DNA of 63,993 nucleotides, filler included, from Collodictyon triciliatum (Eukaryota): assembly GCA_043381765.1 (NCBI GenBank). It is 6 parts of 6 records of this genome, joined end to end, with 100 filler letters (N's around TTAATTAATTAA, not from the genome) between each part and the next. Parts side by side here need not be neighbours in the genome. Positions count along the whole stretch, not along the records: positions 23,982 to 35,863 come from JBHJMP010002290.1; 5 more parts are not named here. One strand, 5' to 3'. Of this stretch, positions 136-59,918 are shown one piece after another (the stretch's first letter is position 1; each line of letters opens with the position of its first letter). The notes under the pieces are model-generated. The model was not told the DNA's origin, searched no databases, and was given only the letters and a program-made list of their open reading frames with translations. The translations under genes were made by a program, and so were the position numbers.

Positions 136-9028
<8,893 letters not shown>

Positions 9029-11897: not shown

Positions 11898-11997
11898 NNN
11901 NNNNNNNNNNNNNNNNNNNNNNNNNNNNNNNNNNNNNNNNNTTAATTAATTAANNNNNNNNNNNNNNNNNNNNNNNNNNNNNNNNNNNNNNNNNNNN
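11898..11997. other. Artificial scaffold spacer (44N + TTAATTAATTAA + 44N)
   Basis: Six-frame stop linker at 11942-11953; the same 100-nt structure recurs about every 11.98 kb. Confidence 0.97.
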
Positions 11998-23881: not shown

Positions 23882-23981
23882 NNNNNNNNNNNNNNNNNNN
23901 NNNNNNNNNNNNNNNNNNNNNNNNNTTAATTAATTAANNNNNNNNNNNNNNNNNNNNNNNNNNNNNNNNNNNNNNNNNNNN
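23882..23981. other. Artificial scaffold spacer
   Basis: 44N + TTAATTAATTAA (23926-23937) + 44N. Confidence 0.97.
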
Positions 23982-24781
23982 AAGTATCAAAAAGAACAAG
24001 AGAAATTACCTTCGATGGCTTATAATCGATCGTTGTTGAGTTTTTTTTTTTTTTTTACTTACCATGGTTGTGATTATAAATATGACATGAACGAGTTTGC
24101 ATGTATTATTGAGGCATGTTGAACTCAATCTAGGTTAACAATCAGAGTAAAGGAAAAAAACTTGACAAAGAGGGTTGGTAAAGATCGTCGTTTCTCCTGA
24201 TACAGAGACCATACGCACTTATTTCCTATTTACCTCAGAGCTCAGTGGCGTTGGTTGGGAAGACACCTCCATAGTGTAGGTAGACACTTTTTATGGTCTA
24301 TTCCTTTTTCTCCTTCTTTGACTAATACACAAATATATTCAGTTAACTGCGTTTTTTCTTTCTCCCAAAGAATCACACTTCTCTCTGTAGAGGTGAATAG
24401 TTCATTTTGTTTGAGGATCAGAGAAGAGAAAAAGAAATAACCTAGACAAAGTAAGGAATATCGGATGGCTTAACGCGATGACCTTTGTTTTATGTCCAGA
24501 GTTAAACATTGGTTTTTGCCCAGCGTGTTTCTTTTTGTTTGTCTCTGTCTTTGTGAGCGGCAGATTTTGCGTGAATGTGCGCGATCAAGCGGGTGTATTT
24601 GTCAACCGAGATGCAGTTTTTTTTCTGGATTTTCGTAGAAATAATACTATTCTGGAAATTACGACAGCCCTAGATTTTCTCTTTCCCTGCCTTTTCATTC
24701 CCCAAAAATAATAATTTTTTTCTATGCTATTTTCTCTAATGGAAAAGATTTTATTTCAATGTTGAGTATGTACATGGTGAT

Positions 24782-27700
24782 TTAACGAGGTTGTATACTT
24801 ATTCCAGCGATGAGAGACTCGTCATGTGAATTTAACTTTTGCCTAGCCTCTGCAGCAATGACTCGAGATTTTTCGTAGTCGGTGGCCAGTGTAGAAAGTG
24901 CTTTGTCGTAATCCCATAATAACTGGTGGAGGGAATGCAAACGAGAGGACAAGGCTATATACTGAATTTTCGGGATGAAGAGGATGTCTTGACCAGATAC
25001 CAGTTTGATCCCATTCATACTCGATGGAGTGTTATGGATTCGTTGTGACAGGGAGGTGCAGTCGTCTTCAAGGAGCTTTAAGCGTCGCATTATATGAGCG
25101 GGGAAAGTTGTTTGGGTTTGGGGTTGTGCCGTATTTCCCTGCGAGACGTTCCAATCTTGCATTCCGTCGTTTATTTTTTGCTTCTCTGTTATAAACTTGG
25201 AAACAGTGGATTTGTATGTCTCAGCAAGGGTCATGCTCTCCTTAGCTGCGTGTTTCCAGTATTCTTCCAGTCTTATGATTTCATATATTTCGATTCTGGA
25301 TTGATTCAACTCAATCAAGAGCGATGATTTCTCTTCATGGAGAGAGTTCACTCGTTTCTGAATTTCTTCAAACATTTTCTCACGTAATACATTTTCAGAG
25401 CCCAGTCCTTGAATTGTCATGTTTAAACTCTCGATTTGCTTGGAGTGCTCGAAACTGCTGTTGTGCATATGTGAATTTCTCTCTTGTGTGTCGATCATTT
25501 GTCTAATAGACTCTCGCAGGCTCTCAGATTCTTGCAAAGATGAGCCATATAATAATTTCAAAGATTCGTGCTGTTTTGAAAGCTCTTGGAATGCCTCGCG
25601 CGTTTTGTCCAATGTCGAAGCTGTTTGCTGTAAGATGCTTTCTATGTGGGTGTATTGTCGCTGTGATTCTGATACCCGAGTGCAAAAGGCGTCACGCTCA
25701 TCGTGTAATCTTTTGTTTTCGACTCGTACTTCCTTCAACTCTTTTGCCAATAGTAGGAAGTGATCCAAATCTTCGTTCTCGGGGTCTATACATGTATAAA
25801 TAGATATCAGTGCATTTCTTTAATCATTTACGATGTGTATGTGTGTCTGTTTGATAGAAGTGTGGGTATGTGTAGGCACGGGTGCTTTTTTTTTTTGTTT
25901 TTTTTTGCTTTGTTTTTGACACAAAAGATGGAAGAAGAAAAAAAAAAGAAGCTACTACTTCACATACAACAGAATTAAAGAAAATCCTTGAAACTTATGT
26001 GATACATAAATGCGTTATTTTGAAAAGCCTGGACCTAACCTTTTGGTTGTTCTTCAACAGGGTATTCTATGGCCTCAGGATTGAAAGACATATGCCCCAT
26101 TCCATTATCAAAGGCTATGCATTTGTTTATAAAGTCGCCACCGTCATTCATTATATGATTTAATGACTTCAATTGAGAAGAGTGCTGGAATTCGGAGACA
26201 ATAAACATTTTCAACCGTTCAATGTGTTGCTTATATTTTGATAACTGAATATGGGAATTGCTCTGGGATATTTCGTTCGAGGATAAAGTGGCTGAGAGTA
26301 TCTCGACCTGTTCATGAATATCTCTGTTCAACAAGCTACATTTTTCCAGCTCTGACTCCTTGTCAAGTAATTTATCTTCGTATTTCTTCTTCGTCTGCTC
26401 TAGTTCGTTTAGAACCATGGAAAGACCCTCGATCTTTTTTGAAAGCATTAGATTTTTACTTTGAAGCTCCTTCATATTTATCAAAGACTGACTCAGTTCT
26501 TGGACCACTTCTTCCTTCTCCCTTTCAGACTCATTTAATCGTTCAAAGATATCTTGTGATTCTTTTCGAAGTTTTGCAATATTTTCTGCATGGCTATTTT
26601 CCAAATGTATCATCTCGGAGGAATGATCTTCTTTTGTCTGGCGTATCTGAGAAACCAACTCGGATATTTTCTGTTTCAATGAATTCAAGAGTTCTAGTTG
26701 GACGCCATCACGTTGCTTATAGTTTTCTTCCGCTTGACTTAATTGAGCCTTTGTCTCATCCAATATACTGTTGAATCCTATGTAGAGGGATTCAACAATC
26801 TTTTCGTGATGTGACTTTTGAAGCGTAAATTCTTCTTCCATCTCATACACCCTTTTCTTGTATAAATCAAGAATAGCAGCCTGAGATTGGTAATTTTCAA
26901 GCTCTTTCAAATATCTATCTCGCTCATCTATGACACCATAGAGAGAAGAATGGAGTTCTTCAATTTTCCTTCTACGAGATGTTTGAATCAAGAATATTAA
27001 AAGAAATAATGATTGCATATGCTTATTCTCTTGCAAAGAGTAAAAATTAAATTGAAAATGAAATTAATTAGGAATAATCACGATAATAAATTATAATTGT
27101 AAATCATTAACAAGAATTGCAATAATAATAACAAAATTAATTGTCCTGTGTTATTTAATTTTTATCAGAATTAATTAATATGACGAAGATAAGAGTATAG
27201 AAACTTTATTATGGAATATTTACATCAGCTCTCTATGAAGATTAGCTCCGATCTGTTGGTGCGCATTACTAGATGCTCCTTTGTTTGTCGTCCATTGGGA
27301 GCTAGAGAAATTCAACGTAGATGACGAACCAGTCTCAGCCGAGGACATTTCATCTCCCAATTGGCTATACAATCTTTTATTCTCTATTTCTAAATTCCTG
27401 ATTCTACATAGATAAAAATATCAGCTTGGATTGGTGTTGAAGTCCGTAACTTTCTGGTTCTTGATTACAATATAAAAGAAACATCTTTGAATCGAATAAA
27501 GGAAAAATATATAATAAACATAACATAGTATTGAAGGTAGGGTTCATCTTTGATATTAAATTGTTATTTAAAAAAAAATAACCTGGATTTATACTGTTGA
27601 ACTTCGTCACTTAAAGACTCGATAGTTGTTTTTTGCCTTACGTCCAATGATTTTTGATCTGTTATTTCTCTCTGTAGCGACCTAACAGTAAGCTCACAAG

Positions 27701-29173
27701 ATGCCAGTTTCTCTTGTGATATATTAGATTCCTTCTTAATTCGTTCGATTGCCGATTGGTTTGATTCTATCATGCGCACAATTTGAATAGGGATTGATGT
27801 TTCATAGTCAAATAGGATTTGCTGCTGCTTATGAATTTTCTGGGATATTGCCTCTCTGAGCTGCGCGTTTTCTTCTGATAAATGATTGATTCGCATATTC
27901 AACTCATCATAATTAGTACTGTTCTGCTCCTTATGTATTTGGTGTGAAAATCCATGGGCAGACTTTGTATGAGACAATATATTTCCATTATCTATGATAT
28001 GATTGGTTCTATGGCTGACTTTACCCTAAAATCAATAACGGCGTATTAAGCGGTGGTTGAATTTGCAGAGTGAGTAGCCGGATTCGTTTGTTTGATTATT
28101 TATTTTAGATTTTGAATATATCACCACCGTATATGAAGAATGGTTTCCTGTAGAAGCTCGTTGGTGGTTGTGATTCACTCTTTGAATAATAGGAGTATAT
28201 ACTCTCGTGTCGTTATCTGATGAGCTACGGTGTTGACTTGAATTGAATTGAATTGAATTAAAATTATCAATGCTTGGAAGATTGCAACAAGGCATCTGGT
28301 AAATTAATATATGTTTTTTATGTGCATATGAGTATCACATATCATACTTCTTTTTAAGAAAATACGCGCTAAAAGAAAAAGAGAAAATAATAAATAATTA
28401 TGATTTGGTACGTTAATTTTTTCCATTTTTATAAGAGCAAACAGAAAAATAATAAAAAGGGAGTAGTAAATGGAATTTAGATACCTGGAGGTGGGAATGT
28501 TCTGCGTTTCGTTTTGTACAATATCCTTTGTTTGGTCGTGAGAAACTTGATGATGCAAGCTTATAGAGAGATGACTTTCTCCAGAGCTTTTTCGTATAAC
28601 CAGCGGTTGTGACTTTAATGGTGTGGTAAATACTAATTTGTGCCAGAATGAGAAAGTGGAGAGAGAAGGAAAAAAAAGTAAAACTCAAGCATCAATTTAA
28701 GAAGGGAGACACCAATTACATGCATTATGAATGATTGTTGAGTTTAAAGTGATGAATAAATATAGAAAATAAACAAAATAATAATAAAACATAGTAAAAA
28801 AAAAGAAAGTAAGCAACGAAGACGCCAAGTACCCTTTCTCGACTCTTCCTCGATGGTTTCACTTGAAATGAATGATAATTGGGCCTGTGCCTTTGACAGC
28901 AGTAAGCGATACTCTTGCGTATTGAAGTTCTCTGATAAAAAAAAAAAAGTAAAACTATTTTAAAATCATTCATTTGCTCATCTAAAAATGAATAGAACTA
29001 GTTGACATGAAAAAAAAACCTCTTTTCTTAGACGACAACTCGGGCGTTTTGGGTGTCACAAAACTCTGGGGACTGCCTACAACCCGGTTCACGGAGTTGG
29101 GTGTGGCTGGACGAGCGCCCATAGACATGGAAAAGCTAATTGGAGAACTTGAGGGATTTTCGTATTTGCTCAT
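24782..29173 (-). CDS. Large multi-exon coiled-coil protein of unknown function with an S/P-rich N-terminus (3' end uncertain)
   Basis: ATG 29173 (MSKYENPSSSPISF...TPKTPE). Long heptad-rich exons at ~27590-28030, ~26040-26975 and ~24800-25790. Further exons toward 24000-24700 could not be resolved. Confidence 0.7.
27469..27521 (+). mobile_element. Micro-insertion copy 3 with 16-bp direct repeats (2 mismatches)
   Basis: AATATAAAAGAAACAT / AATATATAATAAACAT flank CTTTGAATCGAATAAAGGAAA; antisense in an intron. Confidence 0.6.
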
Positions 29174-30418
29174 GAGAACTTTGGGGAATGAACCTCTATT
29201 TACTAGCGAAATCTTGTACAGTTGAACCGTAAGAAACAAAATAAGATAGAATGACAGAAAGACTAGATCTGGCAGGGGACGCAGGGTTAGGGTTTTGGAA
29301 GGGTCAGTTAGGTTAGGACTCTGCAGATCGACTTGAAAGGGTGAGTCTTAATTGCAGCTGCAGCTGAGTGTGTCATAGGTCCAAGATTCCCGATGGGCCT
29401 GCGTTGTGAATAACAAGATGGCACGCTTTGGGTTTGTCTGGACTTTGTCAGATGTGAAGCGATGGAGTTGCCGGGTGGTGGGTTTCGTGGTTCAATAGAC
29501 AACAACGCAACGATCACAAAGTTTTTGCAAATCCGGAAAATATATTATATACATTTATAAAAAAAAATATGATGAATTATTTTCACATATTAACATTACA
29601 CCTGTCTATAAAATGTAAATTTAAATATATATATAGATTGAAGAATGGTTTCGTACGAGCTTTGGAGCGATGGTAACGCATCCATTTGTTCTCTTCATCA
29701 GTCGTAAGTAACTTTCGCATACATGACTTACAAATATATTATAATTTATGTATTTTCATTTATATATGATTAATTATGAAAAGTTTGACTAAATATTATA
29801 TGATACCTATAAATTACACATATGGTGTACAGATTGATTTGGTTTTGATTTTTGTTTGGGAGATAATTCCAAAACAGGTAGGCAACGAGACAGGCTTCAG
29901 CGGCAAGGGAGCGCCGACAACGCAATGCCTCTGGGAAACCAAGAATTCCCTCAGAATATTTCCATAATTAGTGCGCACCCTTTTCTGCAACGCGAATCAG
30001 ATCCATGTTCAAAAAAACCGGTCGCGCAGCCAGTACGTGGCCGGGCTACTTAATCGATCCTCCGGGGTTGGAACTATCACCAAGACACCACAATACAAGC
30101 GTCAGGAATCGGTGAGGAACCTGCACCGGGGCTTGCGGACGAAAGTAACCAAGAAAACACCAAACAAACAACGACAATTCCTCAGCGGTTCCAATGCACG
30201 GCAGAGCCACCCACCTACTTATTCTCTGAGCACAGCCTCCGCATTTCCCACCACCATCCAAGTCACAGCCCTCCACGCCGCTGCACCTGCAAAGTCTCCT
30301 CTGAATCAACCAACCAACCAACTGACCAAGGCGCTCCTTCGTTAAATCCACCCTTCCTTCCTTCCCTCCAAGCTAGGAACACAGCGACAGAAGCGAACAA
30401 ACACACGGCCTTATCCGC

Positions 30419-33400
30419 ATGTCCCGCCCAGCCATCTATGCGGGATACCAGGCGCAGCCACGCACTGTTGTTCTCGGCCCTTCCGCCAGCCCACCAAACC
30501 CGCGCTTTCTGTCGCCCCGCTCCCTCCCTTTGGCGACCCTGCGTGTGCCCGAGTACGCCCCTGCTGCCCACGCCCCGCAGCCGGCCTCTCTGCACCTGTC
30601 CATCCCGGCACCACAGCCGCAGCTGCAGCCGCAGCCACAGCACGTGCCCATCACACAGCCACAGCCCCAGCCACAGCACGTATCCTTCATACAGCCCCAG
30701 CCCCAGCCACAGCCACAGCCACAGCATGTATCCGTCATACAGCCCCAGCCACAGGAGCCCCAACCACAGGAGCCCCAACCACAAGAGCCCCAACCACAAG
30801 AGCCCCAGCCCCAGCCACAGCCACAGCCACAGGGGCTTGTCCTCGCAGAGCCCGTGCACGAGATCCCCAAGGGGCTGCCCGACCTCGACCGGCAACTGAT
30901 CGGGTCGCTCAACTCGACAACGCCGTGCTTTGTGCTGTCCGACCCGCACCAGGCCGACAACCCGGTGGTGGCTGCGTCCCAGGAGTTCTTTGAGACGACG
31001 GGCTACAACACCTTCGAGGTTGTGGGCCACAACTGCCGCTTCCTCCAGGGCCCCATGACCGACAGCGAGGCCATTCGGTGCGTTCATGCTCTATTTTGCT
31101 CCTTCTGCTCCTTCTGCTCCTTCTTATCTTGTCTCCTATGTCTGCACGCGCTGCTCCGTCCCTGACGCTAACGCCACCCGCCACCCGCCTCCGCCTCCGT
31201 GCTGCGCAAACAGCACCCTGTCCAGGTCCCTGCGCGGCGGCGAAAAGTCGACAAATGTGCTGCTCAACTACAAGAAGGACGGTTCGCCGTACTGGAACTA
31301 TCTCCGCATCCACCCGCTCGTCGACTCCCANNNNNNNNNNNNNNNNNNNNNNNNNNNNNNNNNNNNNNNNNNNNNNNNNNNNNNNNNNNNNNNNNNNNNN
31401 NNNNNNNNNNNNNNNNNNNNNNNNNNNNNNNNNNNNNNNNNNNNNNNNNNNNNNNNNNNNNNNNNNNNNNNNNNNNNNNNNNNNNNNNNNNNNNNNNNNN
31501 NNNNNNNNNNNNNNNNNNNNNNNNNNNNNNNNNNNNNNNNNNNNNNNNNNNNNNNNNNNNNNNNNNNNNNNNNNNNNNNNNNNNNNNNNNNNNNNNNNNN
31601 NNNNNNNNNNNNNNNNNNNNNNNNNNNNNNNNNNNNNNNNNNNNNNNNNNNNNNNNNNNNNNNNNNNNNNNNNNNNNNNNNNNNNNNNNNNNNNNCTGCC
31701 GCCGCCAGCGTGGCCCGGCTCTTTGCCTCAGACACCGCCACAGACGCCGCCACAGCCACAAACCCCGCCACGAGCGCACCGCCACGCACAAAGAAGGTGC
31801 TGCACAGCGTCAGCGGGTCGGCCATCCCCGGGCAGGTCACGGCAATCATGGGCCCGTCCGGCTCCGGCAAGACCACGCTGCTCAGCATCCTAGGCAACCG
31901 CGTCAAGACTGGCGTCCTCTCCGGCGACGTCCTGTACAACGGCCGCCCTAAGACCAAGCAGATCAAGCGCTTTGTCGGCTTCGTGCTGCAGGTCGGCCCT
32001 CTTTGCCCCTATCCCTAATCCCAATCCCTATCCCTATCCCTATCTGAATCCACACACAGATTGGCAGTCTATTTCCCCTTCCTGGGCCAAATCTCATCGA
32101 CCCGCTGACACTGCGTTTCGCAGGACGACATCCTCTTCGGGGAGCTGACGGTGCGGGAGACGCTGACGATCACGGCACTCCTGCGATTGCCCAACACAAT
32201 GACGCGGGAGCAGAAGCTGCTGCGCGTGGAAGAGGTGATTGGGACGCTGGGGCTGGCAAAGTGTGCCGGGTCGCTGATTGGCAGTGCATTCCAGCGCGGG
32301 GTGTCTGGCGGGGAGCGCAAGCGCGTGAACGTGGGCAACGAGCTGATCACCGACCCGAGCGTGCTGATGCTGGACGAACCGACATCCGGGCTGGACTCGT
32401 CCACGGCATATCTGCTGCTGGTCACGCTCAAGCGGCTTGCGGCGCAGGGCAAGACCATCATCCTATCCATCCACCAACCCTCCAGCCAGATGTTTGCCAT
32501 GCTCGACCAACTCATCCTGCTGGCCGACGGGCACGTGGCTTACCAGGGCCCCGGCGCAAAGACCCTGGCCTACTTTGCGCATCTGGGCTTCGACTGCCCG
32601 CCCGGCTTCAACATGGCCGACTATCTCATGGACATCCTGACCGACCAGGACCTGCAGACCGCCGATGCCGCATCCGCATCTGCGCCGGGGTCCCCATCCA
32701 GCCAGCCTGCCAAGACCCGCCCCGAGTCCTCCAAGAAGAAACTGATCGACGCCTACCGCAAGAGCGTCAAACCCGCCGTCGTGGCCGCCATCGAGGCCTA
32801 TGTCGACACTCAGAGGCTCGGCTCTCAGTCCATCGTGCCACCTGGTGCTAAGTCCGACCCGGCCCTCTCCGTCACACAGGCAGAGACTGCCACTGTCAAC
32901 ACCGCTGCCGACACGCAGATCCCCGGCCAGGACCAAGCGCAGGTCCAGAAGGAGGACACGGTGTGGCCCACCACGCTGTGGCAGCAGTACACCGTGCTCT
33001 GCTCGCGTGCTTTCAAGCTCAAGCGCGGCCAGACCCTCAAGTCCCTCCTGTTCTGGCAGTACATCGCCATGTCCGCCATCGTCGGCGCCATCTGGTTCCA
33101 GGTCGGCACGGACGAGGAGAATCTGCGCAATCGTGTCGGCGTCATCTTCTTCCTCACAATATACTGGTCCTTCCAGTCCCTCTTCAGCGCACTCAGCACT
33201 TTCCCAGGAGAGCGAGGCATTCTCCTCAAGGAAAGGGCCTCCGGCTCTTACAGGCTACTCGCCTATTACCTGGCAAAATCCACAGCCGAGTTGCCCTTTG
33301 AACTTCTGTGGCCCTCTTTCTCTCTTCTGATTGTCTACTGGGTCGCCGGCTTGAATCCCGACCCAGGTCACTTTTTCTTGTTCTGGTTCTGCTTGCTCCT

Positions 33401-33827
33401 CAATTGCTTCACCGCGCAGTCCCTGGGCCTGACCATCAGCGCAAGCGTCACAGACTTTCAGAAGGCCATCGTCATCGCCGCTACCAGCATGCTTGCTTCC
33501 ATGCTTATTAGTGGATTCTATGCCAAAATCGAGACAATCCCAGAGGGAATCCGCGAGCTGAGATACGCCACGTTCATCTTATATGCCTTTAATGTCCTGC
33601 TCAAGGTGGATGTGTCTGGTGACATCAAGTTCCGCTGCTCAAAAGACCCAGGATACTTTTCCACCTATGAGGCCTGCCCAGATGCAGAGTTTATTCCACA
33701 CGAACAAATTCTCGAGGAGTACCGAGCTGACCTTTCTCCTGGTCAGTACATTGCCATCATGTTCCTCTTTACCATAGTTATGCGCTTCATCGCATACAAA
33801 GCATTACAATACTCCAGTAAGGCCTAG
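30419..33827 (+). CDS. Putative LOV-domain / ABCG half-transporter fusion (P/Q-rich N-terminus, LOV, NBD, ABC2 membrane domain)
   Basis: Exon 30419-31077; intron 31078-31213; exon from 31214 through gap 31331-31695 to 31991; intron 31992-32123; exon 32124-33827 (TAG). LOV: FVLSDPHQADNPVVAASQEFFETTGY..EVVGHNCRFLQGPMTD...LLNYKKDGSPYWNYLRIHP. ABCG: GPSGSGKT, VSGGERKRV, LMLDEPTSGLD, SIHQP, then hydrophobic TM helices with ER..LLKERASGSY. Each domain is high confidence; the single-gene call depends on the gap. Confidence 0.75.
30610..30831 (+). repeat. Coding tandem repeats encoding (QP)n and (QEPQP)n upstream of the LOV domain
   Basis: CAGCCA/CAGCCC units and 15-nt CARGAGCCCCARCC-like units, in frame. 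Confidence 0.85.
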
Positions 33828-34571
33828 AAACGGCATACTCGTGGCCCCAACTCTAGTGTTGTCTTTTTTTTCTTCTTCTTCTCTTTATTATTGTTTTTTG
33901 CCCTCCCTTCCAATCCCTTTCCTTTGGATTNNNNNNNNNNNNNNNNNNNNNNNNNNNNNNNNNNNNNNNNNNNNNNNNNNNNNNNNNNNNNNNNNNNNNN
34001 NNNNNNNNNNNNNNNNNNNNNNNNNNNNNNNNNNNNNNNNNNNNNNNNNNNNNNNNNNNNNNNNNNNNNNNNNNNNNNNNNNNNNNNNNNNNNNNNNNNN
34101 NNNNNNNNNNNNNNNNNNNNNNNNNNNNNNNNNNNNNNNNNNNNNNNNNNNNNNNNNNNNNNNNNNNNNNNNNNNNNNNNNNNNNNNNNNNNNNNNNNNN
34201 NNNNNNNNNNNNNNNNNNNNNNNNNNNNNNNNNNNNNNNNNNNNNNNNNNNNNNNNNNNNNNNNNNNNNNNNNNNNNNNNNNNNNNNNNNNNNNNNNNNN
34301 NNNNNNNNNNNNNNNNNNNNNNNNNNNNNNNNNNNNNNNNNNNNNNNNNNNNNNNNNNNNNNNNNNNNNNNNNNNNNNNNNNNNNNNNNNNNNNNNNNNN
34401 NNNNNNNNNNNNNNNNNNNNNNNNNNNNNNNNNNNNNNNNNNNNNNNNNNNNNNNNNNNNNNNNNNNNNNNNNNNNNNNNNNNNNNNNNNNNNNNNNNNN
34501 NNNNNNNNNNNNNNNNNNNNNNNNNNNNNNNNNNNNNNNNNNNNNNNNNNNNNNNNNNNNNNNNNNNNNNN

Positions 34572-35700
34572 CGAAATTATTCCGATGACCCGTCTCGATT
34601 TCGAATCAAGGCTGAAAGAGAAAGAGTCTGTCGCTCCGTGGACAAAATCCCCCACAATCACACCAGTTTCTACACCTGCACCAAATGTAAGTACGGGAAC
34701 CACACGAAGCTTTTTGTGACAGCATAAAAACCTGTTGTATATTTGTGTGCCAACGAGTTGTAATCCAATCTTTGCCGTTCACTTTGGGTGTATATTATAT
34801 ACTAGGTCAAATCTATGCAAGAGATTTTATTCGAAGAACAGAAGAAAAAAGCAGAGTCTTCGAATCCCAAGGAAAAGTATGTTTTCATCACATCTCATTT
34901 TTGTTTTCTATTCGCATTTATTCACTCACCGTTTAGAATTTATTAAAAGTATTGCCTTTTCTTTTTTGCATCACTTACCTTTCATTCAAAGACCTCAGCA
35001 GAGCGTTTGGTACAAACCTGTAAGTTATTATTAATAGGTTTATAACTGATTATTTTTTACCACGAGAATGTAATTTATTTCATGCACCCCCCTGATGGAT
35101 ACATTTACTGCAAAACTTGATTCAACCTGAAATAGGATGCAGAGAAGCAAAAGAGCTTGTCGGACATATTCTCTGAGGAGAAGAAAAAGAAACAAGAGGA
35201 GGAAATGATGCAGGACATTCTTCGCCAAATAGAGGAGATGGAGGAAAACGACAGAAAACGAAAGGAAGCGTAAGTGCACTCCAGTTAGAACCCGATGTTG
35301 ATTTCTGCAAGACGAAGAAAAATATTACCGGTTTATTTTTCCATTCATATTGGAGACGACTTCTGATACTTTTGTTCGCTCGTTCCTGAAAAAGGAGAAA
35401 TGCATATACTCTTCTGACAATAAGACAAAATTGCCAGGGAGGAACGTGAGAGACAGAGACTTCAGAATCAAAAACAAAACAGCAGCAGAAATCGTCGCTC
35501 GGACGGAGGAAACCGCGTAAAAAAAAAAAAAATCAATTGCTTTATAATATTTGCACAGTGATGTCTCTAAAATAAATAATCGTGGAGAAATGACCTCTTG
35601 ATGTTTGATAGCAAAATAAATTGAGTTTATGCTTCTCTTTTACGTGCAGGAAAATGGTAGAGATAGACACTCACAATCGCAACCGCCAGGTGAAGCAAAT
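34572..35700 (+). CDS. Internal or C-terminal fragment of a charged protein with repeated W...S[LM].[ED]I..EE motifs (reminiscent of IBTK/GYF-protein tails)
   Basis: In-frame exons: ...APWTKSPTITPVSTPAPN / VKSMQEILFEEQKKK / PQQSVWYKP / DAEKQKSLSDIFSEEKKKKQEEEMMQDILRQIEEMEE. The 5' end lies in gap 33931-34571. The family resemblance is weak. Confidence 0.5.
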
Positions 35701-35863
35701 GAAATCATCCAATTTTTCTTTTGCTTTGTTATCTTATTATCCCCTTCTTTTTTCTTTATTTTGCATTTTGTCTTTTGTCTTTTGTCTTTTGTCTTTTGTC
35801 TTTTGTCTTTTGTCTTTTGTCTTTTGTCTTTTGTCTTTTGTCTTTTGTCTTTTGTCTTTTGTC

Positions 35864-35963
35864 NNNNNNNNNNNNNNNNNNNNNNNNNNNNNNNNNNNNN
35901 NNNNNNNTTAATTAATTAANNNNNNNNNNNNNNNNNNNNNNNNNNNNNNNNNNNNNNNNNNNN
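35864..35963. other. Artificial scaffold spacer
   Basis: 44N + TTAATTAATTAA (35908-35919) + 44N. Confidence 0.97.
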
Positions 35964-43864: not shown

Positions 43865-44117
43865 ACTATCCCTTGACTATTCCTAACCCTCTCGAGAGCA
43901 AAACCCGCAACCCTCTCGCCAGCCTCGCACCAAGAAACGCGTGTGCTACGCCTTTGTATTTTTATGCAAACAAAAAAAAAAAAGAAGAAAAACAACCAAG
44001 ACGAGAGTCCTCGCTGGCCAATTCCAGACAGAGTGGCCGGGACAACCGGGACAAAGCCACTAACGCCAGCACGCAAACGGCAGAGCGTGATCGAGAACGA
44101 GAAGGAGAGGCCGAGCG

Positions 44118-45500
44118 ATGCCCCGGAACCCGCCGAACGCGCTGCTGCTGCCTGTGTCCACGACGGCGATCGGCCGGCCGGACTGCACCCACGCGGGGCT
44201 GCCGTTCTTCCCGCTGGGCGACGCAGGGTGCGCCTTCCCGGGGGTGCTGTCGAGCTCTGCGCCGGCCTTCGGGGTGTATGGCGGGGGCTTTGCTGTTGCA
44301 CCTGCGGACGAGGCCTACAGCGACGATGCGGATGCGGATGCGGATGCGGATGCGGATGTGGATGCGGATGTCTACACAGAGGCCGACGCAGATCCTGATG
44401 CGGATGGCGATGGCGATGGCGATGCGGATGGCGACGGCGACGACACGCGCAAGAAAAAGAAGCGGGGGAACCTGCCGAAGGCGGCCACGGATGTGCTGCG
44501 CGGGTGGCTGGTGCAGCACGTGTCGGAGCCGTACCCGTCGGAGGAGCTCAAGGCCGAGCTGTGCGCTGGGACGGGCCTGACCATGTCGCAGGTCAACAAC
44601 TGGTTCATCAACGCCCGCCGCCGCCTCCTCCCCGCCCTGCGCGCACAGGCCGCCGGGCCCTTCGCCTCCGCAGCCTCCACGCCCGCCCCCACCCGCACCA
44701 AGCCGAGGGCGACCCCGGCGCGCAGCCACAGCCACAACCACGAACATAGCCACAGCCACAGCCACAGCCACAGCCACGACCCCAGCAGCGACCAGCAGCC
44801 CCGCCGCCCCAGCGTGCGCGCACAGCCCAGCCCGTACCAGCCGACGCGGCGGCTCAGCATCCCGCGCAGGGCGGCGCCTGTCTCGTCGTCGTCGTCGTCG
44901 CCGCTGGGATCCCCCGCCGCAAAGGCCCACGCGCTGCGCCTCCCCGCCACGCCCGCGTCTGCCGCGCTCAGCCCCCCGACCGGCGCCCTGGCCCTGGCCT
45001 TCTCCCACTTCCACATGCAGCCGCAGCCACAGCCGCAGCCGCAATCCCATCTGCACGCAGAGATCCCCGCCCCCGCGCAGCCGCACACGGCGCCCCACTC
45101 CCACCCCCACCCCCACCCCCACCCCGACATCGACGTCGACACCCCCGCGCACACGCTGCACGACTGCTCGGACCTCTTCGACGACGCCTCGGCCACCGCC
45201 GCCGCTGCCGCGCTGTCGCTGCCGCCCTCGCCCTACTCCTCCCCTGCAACCGCCACGGCAGCCGCATTCGCCTCCCTCCACGCCTACGCCGCCACCCGCT
45301 CGCTCTTTGCCCTGCGCAGCGACGACAGCAGCAGCAGCCACAGCGGCCACAGCGACCCCCGCCCCGCCCCCGGCCTCTTCGACCCCTCCCTCCTCTGCTT
45401 CCGCGACACCCTCAACGCCATCGACTCCCAGTTCTCGGGCGTGTTCCCCCACCCCTTCGACGACCCTGCAGACCTCTTCCCCACAGGCCACGCCGACTAG
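44118..45500 (+). CDS. TALE-class homeodomain transcription factor (TGIF/MEIS/PKNOX-like), intronless and GC-rich
   Basis: Homeodomain [57 protein letters not shown] with the PYP loop and WFIN helix 3; acidic DA/DG repeats before it and HS/HP/QP repeats after it. Confidence 0.92.
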
Positions 45501-47849: not shown

Positions 47850-47949
47850 NNNNNNNNNNNNNNNNNNNNNNNNNNNNNNNNNNNNNNNNNNNNTTAATTA
47901 ATTAANNNNNNNNNNNNNNNNNNNNNNNNNNNNNNNNNNNNNNNNNNNN
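47850..47949. other. Artificial scaffold spacer
   Basis: 44N + TTAATTAATTAA (47894-47905) + 44N. Confidence 0.97.
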
Positions 47950-49090
47950 CCGGCGACAACACATCTGCTGGAGAGAAAATATCATACGTAAAAAAAAAAA
48001 AAGGAGAGAAAAAGCGATGCATTTTCAGCCCGAAAGACGTGAGCGTTACGGGAAAACCAATGAAAAAGAAAGAGGGAGAGAACCATAAAGAAAGAATACC
48101 TTCCAGAGAAGCAGGCGTCTTCTCAGAAGCGGCTCCACAGACACTTGACTTAACTTCATCATCAGTCTTTGAAAAATCTACCGCAAAAAAAAAAAGAATA
48201 AAAGAGAAGATAAAATGTATAAGAAAGAAAAAGAAAAAAAGGAGAAATTAGATTAGAAAGAGAAAACACCTCATCATAGCCAAAAAAAAAAAAGCCAAAT
48301 AAGAAAAAAACCCCCGCATACACGCGAAAGAAGAAACCGCCGCCGAGCACCGCGCAAACACTGTGCACTTGACAGGCACAAACACTGCCTGGTCCAAACG
48401 CTTCAACGACGCCGAATCCCGAGGCGACCCGGTCGCATCCCACGAGACTCGGGCGAGTTGATCACACGAGACATCACGAACACCATCACGAACACCATCA
48501 TCACCGTCATCATCGCGATTACAAGGCTCTTCACGACCGAGCGACGGATGGCGAACGCAGACAGCCTTTGCGCGCAGGAAGGCGGCGGTCTCTGCCGGGA
48601 TGGAGAGGAGCGGATTGCGGGCGAGATTGAGAAGCCGCAGAGCCGTGAGCGGCTGCAGCAGCGGCAGCGGGACGGAGCGCAGGCGATTGCGGGCGAGATC
48701 GATCTGCGTGAGGGACGGCGGGAGGAGGCCGGCGCGCGGGTCGGGCAGGTGGGCGAGTCGGTTGCCGTCGAGGCGGAGCTCCACCAGCAAAGGCAGCTGC
48801 GCAACAGCGGGCGGGACGCCTGTGAAGAGGTTGTCGGAGAGGCGCAGTCTGCGTGTGCGGTGGACCGCCGAGAAGGCGCCCGGCAGCGCGCTGAGGCGGT
48901 TTCCGGCCAGATCGATCTCGAGCAGATGCGGCCAGCGAGTCAGCGGCAGGTCGGCCGGCAGCTCGGGAAGGCCGAAGCCGCGCAGGATCAGGCTAGTTGC
49001 GTGCGTGAGGCCCGGGCTGAGGGAGGGGCGCACAACCTCGTCGTAGAGCTGCTCGCCGCTTTTGCGCGGGCGCGTAGGGGGAGTGGCCAT
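47950..49090 (-). CDS. Leucine-rich repeat protein (about six LRRs), 3' end truncated at scaffold edge
   Basis: LxxLxLxxNxL repeats: LLEIDLAGNRL, TRRLRLSDNLF, LVELRLDGNRL, LTQIDLARNRL, LRLLNLARNPL; further small exons near 48100-48178 and 47950-47966. Confidence 0.85.
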
Positions 49091-49400
49091 CGAGCTTCCT
49101 TCCTGGTTTTAAAGGTTGTTGTTGTTGTTGTTGTTATTGTTGGTTTTGTTGTTGTTGTTGTTGGTTTATTCATCAAAGCCTGCTTCAGAGCGCCTGTCAA
49201 AAAGAGGAGGCTTTCTGCGCAGCTGCCTCTGATTTACGCTCTGTGGCGGATTGATTGTGATTTTGTACAGGATTATTTTCTTTTTTCTTTCCTTTTTTTT
49301 CTTCAGACCATTCTATTTTTTTGATTATTTCCTTTTTCTTTCCTTCTTTTTTCTGATTATTTTCTTTTTCTTCTCCTGTTTTCGGGGCTGCTTCGTTGAA

Positions 49401-59818: not shown

Positions 59819-59918
59819 NNNNNNNNNNNNNNNNNNNNNNNNNNNNNNNNNNNNNNNNNNNNTTAATTAATTAANNNNNNNNNNNNNNNNNNNNNNNNNN
59901 NNNNNNNNNNNNNNNNNN
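59819..59918. other. Artificial scaffold spacer
   Basis: 44N + TTAATTAATTAA (59863-59874) + 44N. Confidence 0.97.

Follow-up and report, generated by a model that had tools for sequence, protein, structure and literature searches.

Can a blue-light photosensor and an ABC exporter be carried by one and the same gene? This question is raised by a locus of the flagellate Collodictyon triciliatum (assembly GCA_043381765.1), at which coding sequence for a LOV domain is followed, in 5' to 3' order and with both parts on the + strand (30419-33827), by coding sequence for an ABCG transporter, with a scaffold gap in between. The window, i.e., the whole stretch of DNA that was analyzed, comprises 63,993 bases and is a chain of ~11.9-kb scaffolds. 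The LOV/ABCG locus lies in the scaffold at 23982-35863, which is interrupted by two internal gaps, one of 365 N (31331-31695) and one of 641 N (33931-34571). From what is seen on both sides of the first gap, we infer that the locus is probably a single LOV-ABCG gene (30419-33827, + strand), which would have at least three exons and its junction within this gap. The features of the locus, in order, are the following:

30419-30835, + strand: start codon and 139-residue Pro/Gln-rich low-complexity N-terminal region (translation).
30836-31077, + strand: core of LOV exon 1, comprising the A'-alpha helix, A-beta to E-alpha and GHNCRFLQ (PDB sequence search, aureochrome LOV, E 3e-15).
31078-31213, + strand: intron 1, 136 nt, GT..AG (splice sites and one 188-nt RNA contig of metatranscriptome X3).
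31214-31330, + strand: second LOV exon, which spans F-alpha to H-beta, carries the two flavin-binding Asn (LLNY, YWNY) and is still open where it meets the gap (PDB search and motifs).
31331-31695, no strand: scaffold gap of 365 N, inside which the final ~26 residues of the LOV domain and the first strand of the nucleotide-binding domain (NBD) must fall (alignment to fused homologs).
31696-31991, + strand: ABCG exon A, read in the frame from 31698, with a low-complexity loop ahead of the NBD, Walker A at 31851-31874, a terminal Q-loop and no start codon (Pfam ABC_tran, E 2.8e-9, and motifs).
31992-32123, + strand: predicted intron 2, 132 nt, GT..AG, phase 0 (splice sites; junction FVLQ/DDILF as in homologs).
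32124-33827, + strand: ABCG exon B, 567 codons and TAG, with VSGGE at 32301-32315, Walker B at 32361-32381, the H-loop at 32466-32480 and ABC2_membrane at ~32982-33605 (Pfam, PDB, and 99-100% identical RNA contigs from X3 and X5).

The LOV part opens with the ATG at 30419, which lies 42 nt downstream of an in-frame stop, and residue 1 is the only Met ahead of the LOV core. In a PDB sequence search, residues 140-219 of exon 1 match aureochrome and phototropin LOV structures (E 3e-15, 6i23 chain residues 3-66), and GHNCRFLQ occupies residues 203-210, with the Cys codon at 31034-31036. Exon 2 matches phototropin and aureochrome LOV domains at E 6e-7 to 3e-6 over chain residues 71-104 of 130, so that the two exons cover consecutive positions of solved LOV chains, and its LLNY and YWNY align with NYKKDG..FWN of phototropin. 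A GHNCRFLQ motif together with both flavin-binding Asn is the signature of photoactive LOV domains. Judged by its sequence, the LOV part is a PAS fold homologous to known LOV domains, with the adduct-forming Cys motif and two flavin-binding Asn, and would be expected to bind flavin mononucleotide (FMN). Since the exon 2 match stops at chain residue 104 of 130, ~26 residues of the LOV fold (the end of H-beta, and I-beta) are not in the sequenced part. Pfam, applied to the separate exons, had no match at E <= 0.01 within the 219 residues that exon 1 encodes, because the LOV domain is split by an intron, and it was the PDB sequence searches that settled its identity; a database-wide look-up of the LOV piece gave generic PAS clusters only. 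An identity as aureochrome was rejected, as Pfam found no bZIP in exon 1 and the N-terminus is Pro/Gln low-complexity sequence. The N-terminal region contains imperfect repeats (PQPQPQHV.., EPQPQ), which are encoded by CAGCCA-type repeats and are similar to low-complexity coding sequence (TATDAATATNPATSAPP) 3' of the gap. The assembly may have broken at 31331-31695 because the linker there is encoded by repetitive sequence.

The ABCG part is entered in the frame from 31698 by a low-complexity stretch, followed by KKVLHSVSG and then Walker A. The first in-frame ATG 3' of the gap is at 31848, within Walker A, hence the ABCG lacks a start codon within the sequenced part. Exon A has no match to the LxFxNVxY first NBD strand of the homologs, so this strand and the start codon must be in the gap or upstream of it. 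The catalytic motifs GPSGSGKT, VLQ (Q-loop), VSGGE, VLMLDEP and SIHQP are all in place, the ABC_tran domain is N-terminal to an ABC2_membrane domain that is matched over positions 1-208 of 211 (Pfam, E 1e-40), and the reading frame ends with a TAG at 33825-33827. By these motifs and domain matches, the ABCG part is a half-transporter in which the NBD precedes the transmembrane domain (TMD) and all catalytic motifs are retained. Its best solved relatives in the PDB sequence search are AtABCG25 (E 1e-85), a similarity that does not carry over substrate specificity, and human ABCG2 (E 6e-77). The anatomy described in the earlier note, which was made from the DNA alone, has held on both sides of the gap: it had placed the 365-N gap just before the last LOV strand, where the fold indeed breaks off in H-beta, and had claimed an intact set of ABCG NBD motifs and a membrane domain with no start Met, in agreement with the motif coordinates, Pfam and the lack of an ATG before 31848.

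RNA contigs were compared for four runs (X1, X2, X3 and X5) of 21 listed. The freshwater metatranscriptomes X3 and X5 each hold contigs of both the LOV and the ABCG part at 99-100% identity, with 30913-31076 of LOV exon 1 covered by contigs of both; both parts are transcribed. A 188-nt contig of X3 lies on 30993-31076 and 31213-31316, and its joint 31076/31213 ("cut +1") skips 136 bases bounded by GT..AG, which shows that the LOV part is transcribed and that intron 1 is spliced exactly at 31078-31213. Removal of this intron had been claimed to yield a LOV reading frame with the photoactive Cys and both flavin-binding Asn, and GHNCRFLQ, LLNY and YWNY are indeed found in the spliced reading. No RNA joint was seen for intron 2 among these contigs, and none of them covers the N-terminal region 30419-30835. 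Several other hits were set aside, namely read pieces piled up at 31845-31884, which reflect Walker-A similarity from other organisms, and X1 pieces at 32017-32051, which are a simple repeat within intron 2. A scan of metagenome contigs with exon A kept 80 loci, all of them <=61% identical over short segments and driven by the MGPSGSGK pattern, with no close relative among them; 35 nt from the left edge of the gap, searched for as an exact pattern, had 0 matches in genome and viral contig collections. The runs that hold sequence of the window are mostly freshwater or lake metatranscriptomes. X2, from a second organism in the same study as X1, contains the ABCG 3' half (32713-33853) at ~95-96% identity with small indels near 32829-32845, so that a close sister strain or species also has the ABCG gene.

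The order of a LOV or PAS domain followed by an ABCG transporter is found outside this locus. Among the 120 "near" matches listed for the ABCG exon, six have PAS_9 N-terminal to the ABCG domains, and a local search of 363 fetched proteins added a seventh fused homolog, P0029, which is an N-terminally cut form of P0399. The combination of PAS_9/LOV, ABC_tran and ABC2_membrane, for which the earlier note had suggested a search, is thereby seen in seven fused proteins among the ABCG homologs:

P0002, Cyanophora paradoxa (EP00741_P007497), 816 aa: photoactive Cys motif and I-beta Gln kept.
P0031, ORF of TSA GECG01000057, 910 aa: photoactive Cys motif and I-beta Gln kept.
P0399 (P0029), Logan ORF, 922 aa: photoactive Cys motif kept.
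P0046, Vermistella antarctica: Cys lost (NLRVLHG).
P0004, Ancoracysta twista: Cys lost.
P0007, Balamuthia mandrillaris (KAL6042921.1): Cys lost.
P0060, Chlorokybus atmophyticus: Cys lost.

In P0002, P0031 and P0399 the motif reads G-R-N/S-CRFLQG. In eight further homologs, the N-terminus is long but contains no PAS domain. When aligned, the three fragments of the window fall on the LOV core and the NBD of the fused proteins, with I-beta, the linker and the first NBD strand between them; the linkers of the fused proteins differ in length and sequence. To judge by these proteins, a LOV or PAS domain ahead of an ABCG transporter is a real and recurrent architecture in eukaryotes, and the gene in the window is likely to belong to this thinly scattered group.

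The fused homologs also provide a measure for the gap. In the three with a fixable Cys position, the distance from this Cys to Walker A is 191 aa (P0002), 181 aa (P0031) and 169 aa (P0046), and the corresponding distance in the window is 104 aa outside the gap, 226 aa with the gap at its nominal size, and 181 aa if the gap includes an intron of ~135 nt, similar in size to introns 1 and 2. The gap thus roughly matches in size what is missing of the coding sequence: 169-191 aa in the homologs compare with 104 aa, so that 65-87 codons would take up most of it, and roughly 100-270 nt remain in the nominal gap beyond them. This is the point at which two adjoining genes have to be considered, with a short LOV protein that ends in the gap and an ABCG gene whose promoter, 5' untranslated region (UTR) and start lie there as well. 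Since the LOV frame enters the gap open and the ABCG frame leaves it without an ATG, one of the two genes would have to stop, and the other to start, within the 365 bases of the nominal gap. No fewer than ~26 residues of the LOV domain and the first NBD strand already have to be accommodated there, so that a stop codon, two UTRs and a promoter would have to fit into the roughly 230-270 nt left at nominal size, in line with the earlier claim that there is little room for such elements and a new start. Upstream of the LOV start, in contrast, the contig has a flank of >1 kb that is AT-rich (35% GC in 28000-29899) and contains no long open reading frame (ORF). Moreover, neither LOV genes nor ABCG genes are numerous in a genome, and because both kinds are rare, a chance head-to-tail adjacency, in the order and on the strand of the known fusions, is far less likely than a fusion of a known kind. 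On the other side, Walker A is preceded by only ~40 residues in some unfused ABCG homologs (P0246 aligns residue 1 of the query at its residue 87), and hence an ABCG start just inside the gap would suffice; no PAS domain is present in 113 of the 120 ABCG relatives listed, and the gap length on which the spacing argument depends is an estimate in a small, unplaced scaffold. Taken together, two adjoining genes are unlikely.

Reading frame and composition bear on the same choice between one gene and two. Codon positions are 0 mod 3 on both sides of the gap, which bears out the earlier claim of the same nominal frame, but the match was rejected as evidence and carries no weight, as the gap length is only estimated. 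The content of G and C at third codon positions (GC3) is 0.89 and 0.87 in the LOV core, 0.87 in ABCG exon A and 0.85, 0.83 and 0.63 in the thirds of exon B, and it is 0.70 in the N-terminal region 30419-30835. The similar GC-rich codon use that had been reported for the two gap sides is thus confirmed (0.87-0.89 on both), compared with 0.38-0.45 in two ORFs upstream on the LOV contig. The shared high GC3 gives weak support for one transcription unit, because high GC3 marks a class of genes in the window, other GC-rich islands of which hold real genes for a TALE homeobox and a leucine-rich-repeat protein. The locus stands out as a sharp composition island at 30001-33830, with 61-64% GC in the gene vs. 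31-40% around it.

A number of observations weigh against a single LOV-ABCG gene. The length of the gap at 31331-31695 is an unreliable estimate, given in an unplaced 11.9-kb scaffold, and the LOV I-beta strand with the signaling Gln falls within it, so that completeness of the LOV domain is not visible. The frame 3' of the gap stays open over 31 codons, for which base composition alone gives a chance of ~0.55, and the other two frames have no stop in that stretch either; the open frame was rejected as evidence. As to RNA that would link 31214-31330 with 31696-31991, to which the earlier note had looked, contigs of both parts were found but no bridging product, as no contig of the four runs spans 31331-31695 or reaches 31330 or 31696. 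The best match of the 567-residue exon among those listed (from 5.8 billion proteins) is P0001 (EukProt EP00002_P023681, transcript TRINITY_DN465_c0_g1), a 604-residue ORF of Diphylleia rotans, a collodictyonid of the CRuMs group, with 66-69% identity over this exon, followed by ABCG matches with 40-47% identity; the P0001 ORF begins inside Walker A and is hence silent on the N-terminus. Together with the mostly freshwater runs, this match of a single gene hints at a freshwater heterotroph of the Diphylleia lineage as the source. A "longer" ABCG protein search, crowded by double-size ABCG/PDR proteins, showed PAS in 0 of 120 matches listed, and a LOV search, which gave 34 matches from 77 candidates, showed an ABC domain in 0 of 34, the best LOV relative being 59% identical.

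The trees belong to the same side of the balance, as the window is tied to the fused proteins by neither of them, a point that also favors two genes. The ABCG tree (58 rows, i.e., the window and 57 half-size ABCGs hand-picked from 363 proteins, built by a quick method without a mixture model) is a deep unresolved polytomy, in which the window pairs with P0001 only and with no fused protein. On it, the PAS label requires six changes for seven rows, and 127 of 500 shuffles are as good. In the LOV tree (45 rows, several long branches), the LOV domain of the window falls in a eukaryotic group that lacks resolution and also contains phototropin, aureochromes and canonical LOV-ABCG domains. Neither tree helps to decide on the fusion, and the PAS/LOV-ABCG family may either be old with many losses or have been assembled several times. 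What stands of the LOV-ABCG fusion gene claimed at the outset is its anatomy and the existence of fused homologs in other eukaryotes, whereas the gap is spanned by no contig, read or protein of the databases covered.

A fused gene need not be a light-sensing one. The PAS/LOV domain could act in vivo as a flavin, redox or ligand sensor, or as a dimerization module, rather than as a light sensor, a proposal prompted by the loss of the adduct-forming Cys in four of the seven fused homologs (P0046, P0004, P0007 and P0060), from which it follows that a PAS module can serve ABCG proteins without photochemistry. The window, however, keeps GHNCRFLQ and both flavin-binding Asn, and P0002, P0031 and P0399 keep the Cys motif, which makes a non-photochemical role of this particular domain quite unlikely. 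A scaffolding artefact, in which LOV and ABCG contigs that are not genomic neighbors were misjoined by read pairs, is in keeping with the fragmented short-read assembly indicated by chained unplaced ~11.9-kb scaffolds (44N-TTAATTAATTAA-44N linkers) and repeats at contig ends, but is very improbable, as a random misjoin would have to unite two domain types that are fused in other eukaryotes, in the right order and strand, with each part also cut off at the joined end, and as both sides have the unusual GC3 in common and both parts are present in the same two metatranscriptomes.

If the single LOV-ABCG gene is accepted, its product would begin with a Pro/Gln-rich tail, continue with a LOV photosensor that binds flavin and then a flexible linker, and end with an ABCG half-transporter of the NBD-TMD type. 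ABCG half-transporters act as dimers, and their N-terminal NBDs are cytosolic. A homodimer would place two cytosolic LOV domains, tethered, beside the NBD dimer; blue light would lead to a Cys-FMN adduct, and the adduct may alter the LOV surface or the association of the two LOV domains with each other. Such LOV-LOV pairing occurs in aureochrome and VVD-type domains. The change in the LOV domain might then act on the closure of the NBDs and their ATPase activity, on the binding of partners or on trafficking, so that export would be tuned by light or by the flavin/redox state.

The coupling was modeled on the complete Cyanophora homolog P0002, for which an AlphaFold2 model from a 7-sequence alignment has a mean pLDDT of 69. 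The model shows an N-terminal helix and a confident LOV core (residues 30-131, pLDDT ~80-84), followed by residues 134-189 without secondary structure (pLDDT <50) and by the first NBD strand from residue 195. The LOV-NBD linker thus comprises ~55 disordered residues and has no J-alpha helix, and coupling through a J-alpha linker, which the earlier note had invoked, is not borne out in this one homolog. Because the linker of P0002 is long and disordered and the linkers of the fused proteins are unlike each other, the model favors docking or dimerization of a tethered LOV domain as the more likely mode of coupling, rather than a rigid J-alpha lever. A complex prediction for the LOV domain (1-145) and the NBD (195-500) of P0002 had a score of 0.02 and counts neither for nor against docking. 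Light gating of transport, and photosensitizers or flavins as substrates, are matters of pure inference. Diphylleia feeds on algae, and an export of photosensitizers in the manner of ABCG2 would be an attractive idea if the flagellate is an algivorous relative of it, a placement suggested by the best match of one gene. In its furthest form, which is doubtful, the proposal would be that a freshwater heterotrophic flagellate related to Diphylleia has a natural one-component blue-light-gated ABC exporter, an ABCG2-like pump that is on only in light and expels phototoxic products of pigment breakdown (chlorophyll catabolites of its prey, for instance) or flavins, and that the other PAS/LOV-ABCGs (amoebae, glaucophytes, streptophyte algae) are the same device.

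The remainder of the window was surveyed as well. Its scaffolds are joined by one and the same linker (44 N, TTAATTAATTAA, 44 N), which occurs five times, at 11898-11997, 23882-23981, 35864-35963, 47850-47949 and 59819-59918, with a spacing of ~11.98 kb, and simple repeats occur at the ends of scaffold pieces. All-frame-stop linkers of this sort are used by established practice to chain unplaced scaffolds; as the window is made up of unplaced scaffolds of similar size, those that adjoin each other in it are not genomic neighbors. On the scaffold of the LOV/ABCG locus, 24782-25819 (- strand) and 26035-27063 (- strand) are long intron-free ORFs of 345 and 342 aa, which are coiled-coil-like, rich in Glu/Lys/Gln/Ser and without a Pfam family. 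On another scaffold, a GC-rich island (66-71%) at 44091-45500 (+ strand) encodes a TALE-class homeodomain (Homeobox_KN, E 3e-19), and a 586-aa open frame opposite to it was rejected as spurious. At 48248-49108 (- strand), in another GC-rich island, leucine-rich repeats (LRR_8, E 2.6e-16) are encoded by an ORF, and 2848-5787 (+ strand) is a 979-codon open frame with 45% GC, coiled-coil-like stretches and no Pfam family. An Rfam search of the window gave zero matches.

Should the junction be confirmed, the locus would add a member with intact photoactive motifs to a little-noticed class, in which a light sensor is placed on an ABC efflux pump, and this class would gain a possibly new eukaryotic lineage. 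Light-dependent ATPase or transport activity in any member, if true, would represent a new mode of transporter regulation and a template for optogenetic control of efflux, and a light-gated exporter, if that proposal is true, would be the first demonstrated case of direct light control of an ABC transporter. Complete public homologs with the photoactive Cys, such as the Cyanophora paradoxa protein, are better starting material for this than the gapped locus.

Among known systems, the best solved matches of LOV exon 1 are the aureochrome LOV domains (PDB 6i23, 5a8b and 3ue6), with which the A'-alpha helix and the Cys motif align. Aureochromes, however, have an N-terminal bZIP and a C-terminal LOV domain, whereas no bZIP was found in the window and coding sequence follows 3' of the LOV domain. 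AtABCG25 (8i38) and human ABCG2 (6eti) share with the ABCG part the NBD-TMD order, the catalytic motifs, the ABC2_membrane domain and a Cys-containing last extracellular loop, yet they are without a sensor domain. The same combination of domains, proposed as a light-regulated transporter, appears as a "LOV-ABC transporter" among 13 algal modular LOV proteins identified in silico (Manisha, Singh and Kateriya, bioRxiv 10.1101/2025.06.20.660589); no experiment is described in the sections covered, and the entry may or may not belong to the ABCG subfamily. The earlier claim that no LOV-ABC transporter had been characterized agrees with full-text literature searches (LOV with ABC transporter or ABCG), which found no experimental study, but its implication of uniqueness was too strong, since the architecture is present in public protein sets and is named in the 2025 preprint. 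From the PAS/LOV-ABCG proteins, which are themselves uncharacterized predictions, the gene in the window differs by its extra 139-residue Pro/Gln-rich tail and its unsequenced junction, and it groups with none of them on the ABCG or the LOV tree. It resembles them in the succession of LOV/PAS, linker, NBD and ABC2_membrane, with an ABCG part that is 37-40% identical (BLASTP) and a compatible spacing, and it is at best another member of this known, uncharacterized architecture.

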